Assembly: GCA_951406725.2 (NCBI GenBank)
Contig: OX597838.1
Location: 33,170,001-33,234,000, forward strand
From: Octopus vulgaris
Taxonomy: Eukaryota
Reading direction: 5' to 3'
DNA: 64,000 nucleotides
A program made the position numbers and the translations under genes. Below the pieces are notes generated by a model. That model worked only from the letters and a program-made list of their open reading frames with translations, made no database searches and was not told the DNA's origin. Positions 4,081-45,565 of this stretch are shown here, piece after piece (the first letter of the stretch is position 1; each line of letters starts with the position of its first letter).

Positions 4081-6540
4081 ACATAGACATAAACATGCCA
4101 CACACACTTTGTATATGTATATGTATGAATACAATGTATACATTTAAACTTTTACACATGCATATACACTTGTATGCACACACTATGTATAACGTAAGCG
4201 CGCGCGTGAGCATGCGTGTTTCTTTGTTATCCAAACTGAGTGTATGCTGCTGCCGCTGCTGCTGCTGCTAACTTTTAACATTTGATGGGGATGTTGCTCT
4301 GGTTTTGTCTTCAGCGTGGGAAACAAACAAGAGCGAATATTATGCGAAATGTTCTGATTTTGTTCTAACTGGAGAGACCTGTAAAAAGCAGACGACATTT
4401 AAACGCAATAATCGGTTGCTTTCGCTCGCTCTATGACAACTCCGCCTCATTTTCTCTCTCTCTCTCTTTCTCTCTGTCCCCATCGCTCATCTGTAATTCT
4501 AGTTCCATTGCTCGACTCTTTGTCTTTCTCACTCTTTATTTCTTTCTCTTTCTCCATTTATTTATTCATTTGTTTCGTAAGTTCTGCAGAGGATAAGATT
4601 TCAAGTAATTTCAAAAACGGAGGGAGTCAGACGATGTTTAAAGCGAGTAGTTTGTCGTTGCAGCGAAACCTAACATACAGTTAATAAGTACGCTTTATTT
4701 CAAAAGGGTAATTCATGGTATTTTCACTAAATTAAAAATGATTTATTTCATTAAATAAAAATTAATGGAAATAAATATAAAATAAAATGAATTATAATTC
4801 TTTTTTGTAACATTGGCTGGCACAACTAACTGCACAAGTTTTAAAGGGGTGGAGGGGTATCGTGAATTATATTTGACCTTTCCACAGTGCATGGCCGGCA
4901 CATATTAAATCGAGCCCCGCTAAAGATGAAGGGCAGATTCTTTCTCGGTGGGTTTTAAAATTCAGAACGTAAAAAATCGGGATTAAACACTATATGGCAA
5001 TTCTTCCAGCACTCTGCCGATTGCTTAAGTCCACTGCTTTTAAATCATATAACGACGGATAACTTTCGGTGTGAAAGCAACAATCAATCATGTTGACTCC
5101 AGTATTTCACTGGTAGTTGATTTTTATAGGGCTCCGAAAAGAATAAACCATAAAGTCGACCCTCGGAGGAATCCTCACTCGAGACGTGATACATAACCTC
5201 TCTGTGAGAGATAACAGCAAGACCTAAGCTGGGGGGGGGGGGTTTCTGACGTCTGTCGTTTTTTTTAGATTCGCTTAGACTTGTATTATCGATAATTAAA
5301 ACCAGTTAATTATCTTCACCTCACCTTCCACTATCTGCAACTTTCCTCTAATTGCACTCAGTATTCGTGAGGTGCCAATGTTGGATTCAATGTACAGCTA
5401 ATGCCTGATATTATCGGCTCAGTTTGGGGCAAAAATGAACAAACGGACCCATAACAGTGACTCGAAAAAGGTACCTATCACTTGTTAGGTGACCATGTCA
5501 TTGCTTTTGGGCAAAACAAAAACAAAAAAAAATGCAAACGGATCTACTACCGGACTCTAACAAGATACCTATCGGACGACAACTATTGACTGTTACTACA
5601 TAATATCGGCCTGCCGTTCCATCTTCTCAAATTAGCTACTATAAACGCTCAGTTATTTCAGCTAATATTTCGCTGCACTTTATTACTTCATCAGTCTCTT
5701 AGCGCTAGCAAGATATGAAGATATGTTATTAATATTTGACAAAGTAAAGTGTTTCCCGTTGTGCTGATGTTCACGGAATAAGCCCAGAGAATCAAATTAT
5801 GAATTTAACTGCTTAAATTTTCATGTTAAAATAATAAAGAGATTTATAAGGCAAAAAAGAAGCAGAAAAGAGAAGAAAATGGATTCCTTTCTCTTTTATG
5901 CCTGAAAAACTCGGTGTTAATAATGTCTCCTGAGCCTTTACGTTGAAAATCTTAAAAGCAAAAACACAAATTTCTTTGGAGATAGTGGTGGGGTGAAGTT
6001 TTGTTTCTTTTGGTATCTGTTAGAATCTGAAGAAAGGATTACATCGCCTATGTCAGTTCTTGGAGGCATAGACGGAAACCAATACAAGAAATACCAGACC
6101 CATGGCACCGCTTTCTGGTACTTTCTCTGCCAGTGTTCTCTGAGGATTAATTTCCTTTTGGCGGCTTAGAACTTGTCATGTGACACGATTAACGGAGTTG
6201 AGTGAAGTCTCACAGTTTTAATGGAGGTGCATGCATTTGTGTGCGCGCACGCACACGTACACGCACGCACACGTACACGCACGTACACACATACACACAT
6301 ATATGTATACATTCATAAATATAAATTTGCAAGTGTATACATACACATAAATACATATATATATACACACATACACGTGTACATGTGTGTACATGCACTT
6401 AAACACGCACATCTATACACACAAACGCATAAATACATGCACTCAAAAATACATGTATACATGTATACATACACGTAAAGCTAAACACGTGCGCATGTGC
6501 TTAAATTTAAATATATGTATATCTATACAGTTGTGTATGT

Positions 6541-6815
6541 GGAGGCGCGATGGTCCTGTGGTTAGGGCGTTGTGTGTGTTTATTGAGCAAAAACACCTAA
6601 AAGCTCCACGAGGCTCCGGCAGGGGGTGGTGGCGACCCCTGTTGTGCTCTTTCGCCCCAAACTTTCTCTCACTCTCTCTTCCTGTTTCTTGAGTAACGCT
6701 GCGATGGACTGGCGTCCCGTCCAGCTGGGGGGGGGGGGGCATACGCCACAGAAACCGGGAAACCGGGCCCATGAGACTGGCTTAGCTTGAAAAGGGTGCA
6801 TAAATAGAAACAAAA
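6541..6815 (+). mobile_element. tRNA-derived SINE family C with 16-bp TSD
   Basis: ATACAGTTGTGTATGT duplicated at 6525-6540 and 6816-6831; body GCGATGGACTGGCGTCCCGTCCAG and GAAACCGGGAAACCGGGCCCATGAG shared with 38302-38820; head partly deleted. Confidence 0.9.
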
Positions 6816-7279
6816 ATACAGTTGTGTATGTATGGATGCCCGTTTAAGAATTGACACACGAAAACATGCGCATATGAACACATCTATGCATAAATACATA
6901 TACATACATATGCACACATATATGTATACATACACACGTGAGTATATAAGTACATGCACACACACACACACGAATAAACATGGAAACATCCGCATATAAG
7001 TGCGGTATCTACTCAAATACATATATAAATGAATATACACAAACACACGCATACTCGTATGAATACACACGTACACACACATAGACCTATACATAGAACC
7101 GTTCACGGTTAACCACATATACATATACATTACACAAGATTTGCAGAATCATTTCAACCGTACTCCCATTGAAATACAATCCGACTCTTTAAAAATGAAA
7201 AGTACAGTTAATCTCTGTGTGTGTGTGCGTGTGTACATATATATTATGTGTGTATGTGTGCATGTATATATAAATATAT

Positions 7280-7495
7280 AGTTAATCCAAACAAGAAAAC
7301 AAAAACAAAAAAACACAACAACGCAAGGACGTGGAACAAATAAAGTATTATTGGACGCTCAGGAAAGAAGGGAAGAAGGAGGGTTTGACGTTTCGAGCTG
7401 AGCTCTTCGTCGGAAACATAGGAGAAGGAAAAATCCCGAGAAGGGAAGACAGGGGAAAAAATCGCTAGTGGTACACACGAGGTCACATACTGAAA
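7280..7495 (-). mobile_element. Penelope-like terminal-repeat fragment carrying a minimal hammerhead (family P1)
   Basis: Homologous to 23155-23370, 36688-36896 and 15285-15470; adjacent to TA/TG microsatellite. Confidence 0.75.
7383..7417 (-). ncRNA. Minimal type I hammerhead ribozyme, U4C mutant (probably inactive)
   Basis: guuu-CCGACGA-A-GAGC uca GCUC-GAAA-CG-UC-aaac. Confidence 0.7.
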
Positions 7496-7554
7496 GGCGG
7501 AAGTAGTAAAAGTAAAAGAATAATGTTTTTTAAAGACAGGAGAGCTATATATAT

Positions 7555-7650
7555 GCGCAATGGCCCAGTGGTTAAGGCAGCGGATTCGCTGTCGTACGAC
7601 CGCGGTTTCGATTCCCAGACCGGGCGTTGTGAGTGTTTATATCAGCGAAA
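7555..7650 (+). mobile_element. tRNA-like head of SINE family C
   Basis: TGGCCCAGTGGTTAAGGCAGCGG...GGTTTCGATTCC A/B boxes, followed by SINE body GGGCGTTGTGAGTGTTTAT. Confidence 0.8.
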
Positions 7651-9131: not shown

Positions 9132-9735
9132 CTTTTCTACTCTAGGCACAAGGCCCGAAATTTTTGGGAAGGGGAGCCAGTCGATTAGATCGACCCCAAT
9201 GCGCAACTGGTACTTAATTTATCGACCCCAAAAGGATGAAAGGCAAAGTCGACCTCGGCGGAATTTGAACTTAGAACGTAAAGACAGACAAAACACTGCT
9301 AAGCATTTCGCCTGGCGTGCTAACGTTTCTTATTTCTTTATTGCCCACAAGGGGCTAAACATAGAGGGGACAAACAAGGACAGACAAACGGATTATGTCG
9401 ATTATATCGACCCCAGTGCATAACTGGTACTTAATTTATTGACCCCGAAAGGATAAAAGGCAAAGTCGACCTCGGCGGAATTTGAACTCACAACAACGGT
9501 AGACGAAATACCTATTTCTTTACTACCCACAAGGGGCTAAACATAGAGGGACTAACAAGGACAGACAACGGACTAAGTCGATTACATCGACACCAGTGCG
9601 TAACTGGTACTTATCCCCAAAAGGATAAAAAGCAAAGTCGACCTCGGAGGAATTTGAACTCAGAACATAACGGCAGACGAAATACGGCTACGCATTTCGC
9701 CCGGCGTGCTAACGTTTCTGCCAGCTCGCCGCCTT
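9132..9735 (-). mobile_element. SINE family A trimer inserted as one unit, 16-bp TSD
   Basis: ACTCGGAACCAATATT at 9116-9131 and 9736-9751 brackets one head, three bodies and one terminal tail. Confidence 0.92.
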
Positions 9736-42523: not shown

Positions 42524-43090
42524 ATGTATATATATATATATATATATATATGTAATGCATATTAAGTACAAGAATCACCAACGAGTGAATAAAATATGTA
42601 AGCACATGAGATAAATACATGACAAAATACCAAGAATAACACAAGTACACGATATCAGCAACTAGTGAAAAATAAAATACGTAAATACATAACGAGGGAC
42701 AAGTACGGGACAAAATACCAAAAGAAGTCTAACTCCTCCTCAGTCGTCGACAGCTTATTACTCCCTGTTTCGTGCTTTCGTGTACGTTAAAGACGAATAA
42801 ATATATTCTAAATACCGTAACAGATAAATTTTAGATTTACTAAAATAAACTTTCCAATCGAGAGGAAAATATAATGCTTTGTGGTGATTGCGACCAACAC
42901 CAAAAAAGTCGAGTATTCTCCGGAATTGTCATGCAATTATGAAGACAGTTTAATTGCCAGGAAACAAAAGGTCAGCTGTTGACATGTGCTTAGGCACACA
43001 CACACACACACACACACACACTCATACACACACACTCATGCACAGACGCAATTAAGAAGTCGTACAATGAACTTAGAACGTCTTTATAAT

Positions 43091-43213
43091 TAGTTACAAT
43101 TGTTTCTGTACCACTCAGTTTCTAACGCCATTGCATGTAAATGCTTTCATGTGAAAAGTTACGCAATATTTTACTGTTGATCATTACATTGGGAGTGACA
43201 CTTCATCAGAATA
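43091..43213 (-). ncRNA. Type I hammerhead with long stem II insertion (left arm of palindrome)
   Basis: uauu-CUGAUGA-AGUGUCACUC...GAGUGGUACA-GAAA-CAAUUG-UA-acua. Confidence 0.72.
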
Positions 43214-43219
43214 GACACC

Positions 43220-43344
43220 GGTCTGATGAAATGTCACTCCACTGTAATAATCAACAGCAAATATTGCTGAGACGTTTCCCACAAGATAGAAAATGTATGT
43301 ATAATGGCGTTGAAAACAGAGTGGTATTGAAACGATTGTAACTA
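43220..43344 (+). ncRNA. Type I hammerhead with long stem II insertion (right arm of palindrome)
   Basis: ggu-CUGAUGA-AAUGUCACUC(79 nt)GAGUGGUAUU-GAAA-CGAUUG-UA-acu. Confidence 0.78.
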
Positions 43345-43354
43345 AACATTCTTT

Positions 43355-43965
43355 TATTCTTTAACTTGTTTCAGTCATTTGACTGCAGCCATGCTAGAGC
43401 ACTGCCTTGAAGGGTTTCAGACGAACAAATCGAACATTTTATTTGACTCGGTCATATGGACTGCGGCCATGCTGGAGCACCGTCTTTAGCTGAACAAATC
43501 GACCCCAGGACTTTTGGGGCGACAAACACAGTCACACAAACATAAATATATATATACACACACATATAATATATATATATATATACGATGGGCTTCATTC
43601 AGTTTCTCTCTACCAAATACACTCACAAAGCTTTGGTCGGGCCGAAATTATAGTAGAAGACACTTACCCAAGGTGCCCGGAACTGTGTGGTTGGTAAGCA
43701 AGCTACTTACCATACATATCTATCTATCTATCTACATATATGCGTGTGTGTGTGTGTATTAATATGTAAAATTAAAATTATATCTGTATCTATCTATCTA
43801 TCTATCTATCTATATCTATATGTGCGTATGCGTGTGACGGGCTTCTTTCGGTTTCCGTCTACCAAATCCACTCACAAGGTTTTGATCGACCCGATGCTAT
43901 AAAGAAGAAGACACTTGCCCGAGGTGTCACGCAAGTGAAGAGAACTTCTCACCACACAGCCACGC
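43355..43965 (-). mobile_element. Cluster of nested or partial SINE B copies
   Basis: Two tails (about 43355, 43445) and two heads (about 43585, 43835). Confidence 0.8.
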
Positions 43966-44441
43966 CTGGTGTCCTCTTAATTATTTCAAGTGTTACCCTT
44001 CGCCACATTCATAAAGCTTCTCTATCAGCAACGTACCAAGAATTTTGGGCTCTGGCCGACTCTTAATTTTCCTCCATTCGTGAGTGCAGATACCGAACCG
44101 TTTGAGTTTGATGCTATACAAGCAAAAATGCCTATTTTCTTCATTTCTCTATCAAAACTTACACTAGAAGTCATATACAGATAGGTTTGTGTGTGTGTTC
44201 ATTAAGATGGCTGCGCATAGACACACACACAAGCATACTTGCATACACAAGCATACATAGATACACACACACAAGCATACTTGCTAACAGACACATATAT
44301 GCACACACGCATATACTAAAGCACACACATATATATATATATATACACATATATTTGTGTTTTGTTCATTACGTACATCTATTATGAAAAAAATATAGAC
44401 CTTTTTTCTCGCTATTTCTTTCAGTTTAATCACAACAACGG

Positions 44442-44472
<31 letters not shown>

Positions 44473-44709
44473 GTGGGAGCGGGTGTAGGGTGGTCGTCTG
44501 TTCGTGTGAAGACTTTTGGCCCCCCTACTGTGGTCTGTTGGAACCTGGTAAGTAACGAATGGTGAGGGAGGGGGAGGGGGAGGATGAAGAAGAAGAAGAA
44601 GAAGAAGAAGAAGAAGAAGAAGAAGGGAAAGAAGAAGGAGAGGAAGAAGAAGAAGAAGACTATCAGGACTGTGGTTAGCAGCTGGGGCTGACCTACATTT
44701 CAAGAACCA

Positions 44710-45288
44710 GTGGTGGTGGTGGTTGTAGTGGTGGAGGTGGTGGTGGTAGTGGTGGTAGTGGTGGTAGTGGTGGTGGTGTTAGTGGTTTTCTTGTGGTTGT
44801 TTTCGTTGTTTTTGGTGGTGGTTAATGTTCACAGTTGTAGTTGTAGTAGTAGTAGTAGTAGTTAATAGTGGTGATGGTGATGGTGGGTGTAGTGGTAGTC
44901 GTTAAGCTAACTAGTGGTAGTGGTGGTGGTGGTGGTGGTGGTGGTGGTGGTGGTGGTTGCGGTGGTTATATTGATGATGATGATGATGATGGTCGTCAAT
45001 GGCAATAGCGGTTAAGTTAATAGTAGTGGCTGGTGTTGGTGTTGTTGCTGTTAGTGGTGGTGGTGGTCGTCGTAATGTTTGTGGTGGTGGAGGCGGTGGT
45101 TGTGATGGCACCACTGGGTTTGTTCACAGAAGCGGACATGTAGTAGTTTGTGAATGTTTATCTATGGTGGTGGTGGTGTTGAGGGAGGGAGGATTGTGGT
45201 GGCGGTGGTTGTCGGAATGGTGATGGTGGTGATAGCGATGGTGTTGTTGGTGGTGGCGGTGGTAATGGAGGAAATAGTGGTAGTTTCG

Positions 45289-45320
<32 letters not shown>

Positions 45321-45565
45321 GGTGGTGGTGCAAAAGTTGTTTAGCACCAGATCGACCCTAAAGGATCAGGTTTTCGATCAAAAGCATTCCAACCACGACC
45401 GTCCTGTCCTTTTAAAAGCGGCAAAGTACTTTTTAAAACATTAAATATCTGAGGAGAATAGTAAGTAGTAGTAGTAGTAGTAGTGGTGGTGGTGGTGGTG
45501 GTAGTAGTAGTAGTAGTGGTGGTGGTGGTGGTGGTGGTGGTAGTAGTAGTAGTAGCAGCAGCAGC

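Follow-up and report, generated by a model that had tools for sequence, protein, structure and literature searches.

The locus examined here holds two apparently intact hammerhead cores placed back to back, and it raises the question of whether they form a ribozyme pair kept by selection or have a more ordinary origin. Within the window, by which we mean the whole stretch of 64,000 nucleotides of Octopus vulgaris DNA that was analysed, the cores lie in a diverged palindrome whose arms are 77.6-77.8% identical to each other and which folds as a single hairpin (-116 kcal/mol, z = -13; none of 200 shuffled sequences was equally stable). From the palindrome centre outward, each arm carries CUGAUGA, then a domain II closed by GAAA, and finally a palindromic stem III with UA behind it, and the type I core (CUGANGA, GAAA and UH, in type I order) is present in both.

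Two long-stem hammerhead motifs, head to head

The minus-strand motif (43090..43209) begins with CUGAUGA at 43209-43203 and continues with a domain II of 96 nt (43202-43107), made of a 9-bp stem with an A.A pair at its base and a 76-nt insert, then with GAAA (43106-43103), the CAAUUG of stem III, U 43096 and A 43095, the cut being predicted after 43095. In the plus-strand motif (43220..43343), CUGAUGA is located at 43223-43229, domain II at 43230-43328 (99 nt, with a 10-bp basal stem and a 79-nt insert) and GAAA at 43329-43332, followed by CGAUUG, U 43339 and A 43340, with the predicted cut after 43340. Both motifs were assigned by a descriptor match and an analysis of stem I. This stem is broken in the minus arm, where a U.C mismatch occupies the second pair and the distal 5′ strand is lost; in the plus arm no more than 3 proximal pairs are left, along with a 5-bp helix that is absent from the family. 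Stem III consists in both arms of 2 bp and a tetraloop, and its palindromic sequence gives calculated self-duplexes of -5.8 and -6.4 kcal/mol. Between the arms lies a 13-nt head-to-head junction (43210..43222), delimited from the sequence and by comparison with the 5′ flank of the family, which includes only a few proximal stem I nucleotides for each arm.

The sequence-only reading had described each arm as one large hammerhead with an insertion of about 80 nt in stem II, keeping CUGAUGA, GAAA, UA, a stem II of 9-10 bp and a CGAUUG or CAAUUG stem III, and the descriptor match and the two inserts bear this description out. It had also expected such long stem II forms to escape standard models, and had proposed a descriptor search with a longer loop. 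Indeed, Rfam gave no match in the palindrome at the gathering threshold, and at E≤10 none of its 25 matches to the palindrome was to a hammerhead family; a descriptor allowing a domain II of up to 200 nt recovered the two arms and nothing else in the 64 kb. The idea of two ribozymes back to back stands in so far as both motifs are real, but a purposeful pair is unsupported. Stem I, which that reading had left unassessed, has suffered damage in either arm. We also considered a miRNA-precursor identity from the Rfam matches and rejected it, since these matches merely mirror the hairpin shape.

A dispersed family with two subfamilies

The motif is dispersed in the 2.8 Gb genome, where we found 47 matches among 250 candidates; the search for subfamily B returned 1117 candidates. 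Exact matches to two patterns of 23-24 nt numbered 51 and 15, and the controls gave none. Exact pattern matches are present in just 4 of the 43 B copies that were sampled, and we infer from this a family size of several hundred copies or more. The family sample comprises 109 distinct loci, 18 of which have two head-to-head motif-bearing arms. Once duplicates of one locus and copies lacking either core half had been dropped, 99 copies were kept, and these split into subfamily A (46 copies, both window arms included) and subfamily B (53 copies), which share 5′ flank, motif and tail. Identity to the A majority sequence is 91.3% for the minus arm (over the motif) and 80.0% for the plus arm. Domain II has a median length of 91 nt in A as in B, which means that the long insert was not born at the window locus. 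The short domain II of locus L056 was considered as a natural short form and rejected, being a deletion.

Other head-to-head hammerhead families, with centres near 1525, were observed at L046, L047 and L052 and at L054, L057 and L058; their domain II measures ~54 nt and 21 nt, and several share an A left unpaired at either side of the foot of stem II. Near-identical duplicated segments also hold copies of the present family (L026/L027, 99.4% over 2.8 kb; L153/L154/L155). One B copy, L097 (G000:C9:77270810-77270916), is matched by the loose ends of a 197-nt contig from run X23, which we guess to be RNA, and this copy may be transcribed.

Extent of the element and shape of its sister palindromes

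The palindrome had been given an extent of 43090..43345; it is real, but the element is larger, reaching from ~43049 on the left to ~44165 on the right. The short inverted arm (43049..43209, minus strand) is a 5′-truncated 3′-end fragment that matches the family profile, and it ends at ~43049, 46 nt beyond the cut site, where it adjoins a (CA/TG)n tract. The long right arm is interrupted by a repeat block of ~620 bp (43351..43968), a later insertion composed of high-copy short repeats and microsatellites, parts of which occur in 70 of the 203 loci compared; these repeats may be SINE-like. The arm resumes at 43969, and its 3′ tail (43969..44165, plus strand) reaches as far as the 3′ terminus of the family, close to a (TG/CA)n tract. 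The tail is covered by a family profile match (43971-44203, E=1e-8) and is ~60% identical to the tail of locus L019. Both ends of the element thus adjoin (CA/TG)n, with no clear (TA)n. Farther along the window, at 44430-45500, the sequence is crowded with tracts of (GAT)n, (GAA)n and (GGT)n and is strongly skewed towards G, and the long ORFs of the window fall mostly within such repeat-rich regions.

This unequal outline recurs in the family. We compared the ends of 25 listed loci, 13 of which have both ends visible, and in 12 of these 13 palindromes one of the two arms ends within profile columns 44-82 while the other continues, past column 230 in 10 of the 12; the exception to the rule is L083. 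The short arm ends at columns 56-59 in 7 of 12 sister loci and at column 50 in the window. Measured from the cut site, the short arms of L108, L119, L127, L129, L139, L145 and the window end 46-49 nt beyond it, and the long arms run ~190 nt further. Such a one-sided tail of ~190 nt suggests two widely spaced start sites of reverse transcription. Inverted 5′-truncated copies with a one-sided tail, there of 30-40 bp, are the standard pattern described for Penelope-like elements (PLEs), and opposite-strand hammerhead pairs 100-700 bp apart are among the cases reported in PMC4209133. For the Anolis PLE in vitro, it is described that both target strands are extended and that reverse transcription begins at two sites. 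A MITE was rejected as the source of these structures: two motif-bearing arms are present at just 18 of 109 loci, the junctions are variable and the ends are unequal.

Could the second arm be younger than the first? A single copy may have been inserted, its mirror arm arising later by fold-back duplication, or gene conversion may have homogenised the two arms. They are indeed unequally diverged: changes relative to the A majority that are private to one arm number 19 in the plus arm and 6 in the other (p=0.015), a skew equalled in strength by 1 of 7 other palindromes. Moreover, a 3-nt insertion is common to both window arms and found in none of 97 other copies, which indicates that both derive from one template and fits any single origin. 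However, the short arm ends where the short arms of sister loci end, a match that would not result from a later duplication at random, and head-to-head CUGAUGA pairs occur at 32 loci against 1 in the control, in several hammerhead families (with a domain II of 21, ~54 and ~91 nt). A later origin or homogenisation of one arm is therefore highly improbable in our view. A tree grouping the two window arms was discarded, its alignment having taken in shared junction letters.

A probable Penelope-like parent

Walking upstream from the B copies leads to locus L170, where a broken ORF (~5500-7590) is followed by ~1.6 kb of AT-rich sequence, a hammerhead at ~9222 and (TA)n at 9538. Locus L194 is colinear with it over the ORF, the 3′ UTR, the motif and the 3′ end at 71-77%, insertions aside. 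In both loci the ORF is interrupted by stops and frameshifts, the hammerhead lies ~300 nt from the 3′ end, the 3′ UTR measures ~1.95 kb and the element totals more than 4 kb. ORF pieces joined to the motif are also found in L196, L200 and L202, the last two being head to head. Like L170, a good many B copies terminate at (TA)n. We note that L170:5500-9537 (G000:C3:91296000-91305700) and L194:3670-8600 (G000:C3:156203500-156213000) each look like a near-complete, decayed Hydra-type PLE, and that a (CTT/CCT)n tract ~170 nt upstream of the ribozyme is the start point of many copies.

Pfam found neither reverse transcriptase (RT) nor GIY-YIG domains in six ORF pieces, and a word-indexed protein search with the ORF remnants returned nothing. 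The full HMMER search with the same remnants brought 1262 relatives (best E 2e-33); over the stretch between RT and endonuclease, the full-length proteins among them can be aligned with the remnants. Motifs were compared in 29 full-length relatives, in which we found DKT/S (24/29), a CxCx4-8C linker (23/29), YRDD (27/29), RWK (10/29) and DKG (2/29); 8 relatives scanned for domains gave one weak GIY-YIG and one weak RVT_1 match, both under the cut-off. This motif set agrees with the Hydra-clade features described by Craig et al. (2021, PMC8557442), and the parent probably belongs to the Hydra-clade PLEs, to judge by the motifs of its relatives as compared by eye.

This linkage is seen in B, at two independent loci (L170 and L194). 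Subfamily A is linked to the parent via homology of flank, motif and tail (62-67% over 130-240 nt), and our searches found no A copy joined to an ORF. Subfamily A might then be a non-autonomous, retrozyme-like derivative of a PLE 3′ end, mobilised in trans by a Hydra-type enzyme, the palindrome having formed in the same manner. Indeed, A copies could be traced only ~175 nt upstream of the core, the piece so obtained had 3 matches when used as a query, and animal retrozymes have been reported as derivatives of PLE pLTRs. On the other hand, PLE copies are normally heavily 5′-truncated and the upstream low-complexity tract blocks the search, no head-to-tail monomers occur among the family profile matches listed, and A has its 5′ flank, motif and tail in common with B. 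We consider such a derivative unlikely, and retain a direct origin of the palindrome from a Hydra-type PLE.

An RT remnant beside L116 and L135 was also considered as the family parent and rejected, as it is separated from the motif by repeats and is not common to other copies. The one at L135:7050-8050 appears by eye to belong to a different, Neptune-like PLE; it stands directly upstream of a stub of the family, with a short repeat and (TA)n between.

Folding of the insert and prospects of cleavage

The majority sequences of A and B reach the hammerhead fold, with full stem I, within 1.7-2.5 kcal/mol of the ensemble, and in these folds the insert forms an interrupted rod on stem II. In the real window arms the hammerhead fold is 10.9 kcal/mol off the ensemble, each, and in a read-through RNA the long hairpin is favoured over the hammerhead by 82 kcal/mol. 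By these modelled energies, the parent RNA probably self-cleaved, and the window copy probably does not.

Conservation of the insert structure was approached in several ways. Stem II, which closes the core, is paired in 84.7% of cells in 39 copies, against 29-43% in slid whole-structure controls. Folding z-scores of the insert are -2.0 for B and -0.6 for A, and pairs derived from B hold in A at 69% against 27-44% when slid, a figure that is not independent of shared ancestry. Covariation in the 39 copies was not above that of shuffles (133/500; two-sided pair changes 13 vs 11.4), and RNAalifold at default settings gave no structure for these 39 decayed copies. Taken together, a structured insert is moderately supported, by the predicted folding and by the B-derived pairs in A. 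No short loop II exists in either arm, and a contact between stem I and stem II might be made via a bulge. The published model of the PLE motif, as presented in PMC4209133, holds that a palindromic stem III of 2 bp favours dimers and that activity is low, and the Anolis PLE motif is described as having required protein.

The RNA check carries no weight here. Among the contigs of the 4 runs used for the RNA check, one of 182 nt (depth 3, run X11, RNA by guess) starts at 43097, two bases off the predicted cut, but contigs cannot show RNA ends and they break in repeats. The Anolis element has an ORF that begins at the AUG within CUGAUGA; such an ORF was dismissed here, since by eye it closes after ~35 codons.

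Selection or inheritance of the core

The most consequential suggestion of the sequence-only reading was that the conservation of the cores, in spite of the divergence of the arms, may indicate selection, and an arm-versus-arm count of core and loop was proposed to check it. In this count the core differs at 0 of 13 columns and the loop at 17 of 74 (p=0.064); without CpG the values are 0/11 and 14/57 (p=0.10), and with the columns adjacent to the core they are 1/24 against 17/74 (p=0.065), at a locus that was chosen for its intact cores. Together with the equal decay of core and loop in B copies, these contrasts leave selection at the locus unsupported.

A broader comparison places the constraint elsewhere. 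The majorities of A and B differ at 0 of 11 core sites, 1 of 20 sites of the basal stem II and 21 of 68 loop sites. In contrast, among 29 B copies recruited with a 451-nt query, and hence without core bias, divergence is 8.2% in the core and 7.5% in the non-CpG loop (p=0.73), and the core is kept in only 10 of the 29. Since the majorities conserve the core while the B copies decay evenly, the constraint would have acted on transposing masters and been followed by neutral decay. The selection signal sits between subfamilies, that is, on the once-active element, and the conservation of the cores in the window is best read as inheritance from active parents. Against this reading, the A copies show a lower divergence in the core (7.4%) than in the loop (16.6%), and the arms of 18 other palindromes, when pooled, differ at 6/91 core against 90/598 loop positions (p=0.03), an excess that, once base composition is corrected for, stands at P=0.027 in the 6 A loci and at P=0.11 in the 8 B loci. 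This small pooled excess and the A values may reflect a core-biased search together with hidden sub-lineages. Between the window and the orthologous contigs in runs X3, X5 and X7, the differences amount to 0-1 letters and one gap along 256-289 nt, a near-identity that gives a selection test no power.

These data also bear on the proposal that the host has selected the locus as a back-to-back ribozyme pair cutting the transcripts of both strands. Both 11-nt cores are intact, both arms are among the 13 matches to a strict pattern genome-wide (a pattern fitted to these arms), and the core-and-adjacent contrast and the pooled excess point in the same direction. However, the contrast between the window arms is not significant, two intact cores are also found in 3 of the 7 other full palindromes, stem I is broken in one arm and short in the other, and the hammerhead fold is as far from the ensemble as described above, in the single arms and even more so in read-through RNA. 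Host selection of the pair is accordingly very unlikely.

Origin of the palindrome

We conclude that the palindrome is very probably an old, inactive insertion of a Hydra-type PLE, composed of two 5′-truncated 3′ ends, joined head to head and each carrying a long-stem hammerhead motif. Less in line with this origin are the lack of an ORF-joined A copy among those found, the unequal divergence of the arms, the low identity (~60%) of the tail to its relatives and its length of ~190 nt, the (CA/TG)n at the ends, the Pfam result on the ORF pieces and the pooled core excess between arms. In the mechanism that we propose, the enzyme of the element would cut the target, and reverse transcription would be primed from both DNA ends on one RNA, starting at two sites, the 3′ terminus and a position ~46 nt past the ribozyme. 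Both products would stop just upstream of the ribozyme core and then be joined. The hammerhead would work in the parent RNA for 3′-end processing, probably as a stem III dimer and perhaps helped by protein, its ~70-nt insert being folded out of the way into a rod carried by stem II. Once inserted, both arms would have decayed neutrally, and a repeat cluster would have split the long arm. The offset of 190 nt between short arm and long tail may thus map two likely start sites of reverse transcription.

Taken alone, this locus amounts to ordinary transposon debris, and the novelty lies in the rod-like domain II of ~91 nt that characterises the family. A further, decidedly tentative proposal, which we hold to be possible but rather doubtful, is that a lineage of Hydra-type PLEs acquired a working hammerhead whose loop II has been replaced by a selected rod of ~70 nt, fixed at a domain II of ~91 nt in both subfamilies, which would take the place of the loop I-loop II contact or dock the protein of the element, with hundreds to thousands per genome escaping Rfam and short-loop descriptors. 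If this were true, some PLE families reported as hammerhead-less may carry long-stem ones. Although the importance of the family is modest, it shows that Rfam misses long-stem motifs, and it offers a simple substrate for studying what PLE hammerheads require for cutting.

Comparison with known systems

The closest relatives are the Hydra-clade PLEs with a C-terminal endonuclease, including Hydra-1_Obim, as described by Craig et al. (2021, PMC8557442). These likewise have a single ORF with RT then endonuclease, and the DKT motif and CxCX5C-type linker given for them are those of the relatives of the parent found here. According to the same description, their hammerhead lies near the 3′ end with stem II flanked by one additional nucleotide at either side, stem III is of the ACA..UGU type, several families have A at the cut site, and copies may be inverted and 5′-truncated, as in the present family; the parent locus L170 further shares with them an end at (TA)n. 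The differences are of size. Domain II measures ~91 nt here, against 3-10 nt for loop 2 in Hydra elements and a maximum of 35 nt (PLE-X1_sMoe) in the table of PMC8557442; the 3′ UTR of ~1.95 kb and the total of more than 4 kb exceed the size of Hydra-clade elements, generally <3 kb in that account; and the one-sided tail of ~190 nt compares with the 30-40 bp published there.

The minimal hammerheads of PLEs described by Cervera and de la Pena (2014, PMC4209133) are also of type I, located in terminal repeats, with a palindromic helix III suited to dimers and a helix II larger than usual, and they too occur as scattered truncated copies and opposite-strand pairs. Their helix II is given as 6-8 bp with a short loop, whereas the motif studied here has a 10-bp stem that carries a rod of ~70 nt and is flanked at its base, unlike in those hammerheads as described, by an unpaired nucleotide at either side. 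The animal non-LTR retrozymes (PMC7229834; bioRxiv 10.64898/2026.07.22.740005) are presented as dispersed, non-coding repeats that are related to PLE ends and contain type I hammerheads, which resembles the present family, but here no tandem monomers were seen and the sequence runs over more than 1.6 kb into a coding parent. The discontinuous Clec2 hammerhead, as reported in PMC6155905, also tolerates a long insertion; that insertion, however, measures 150-1500 nt and interrupts helix I in a type III motif of a host mRNA, whereas the one described here enlarges helix II in a type I motif of a transposon. A search of the literature for long stem II hammerheads brought up no description of an insert of ~70 nt, although supplementary figures could show long-helix forms. 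Relative to the table of PMC8557442, the natural range of domain II inserts in PLEs would thus be extended from ~35 to ~70 nt.
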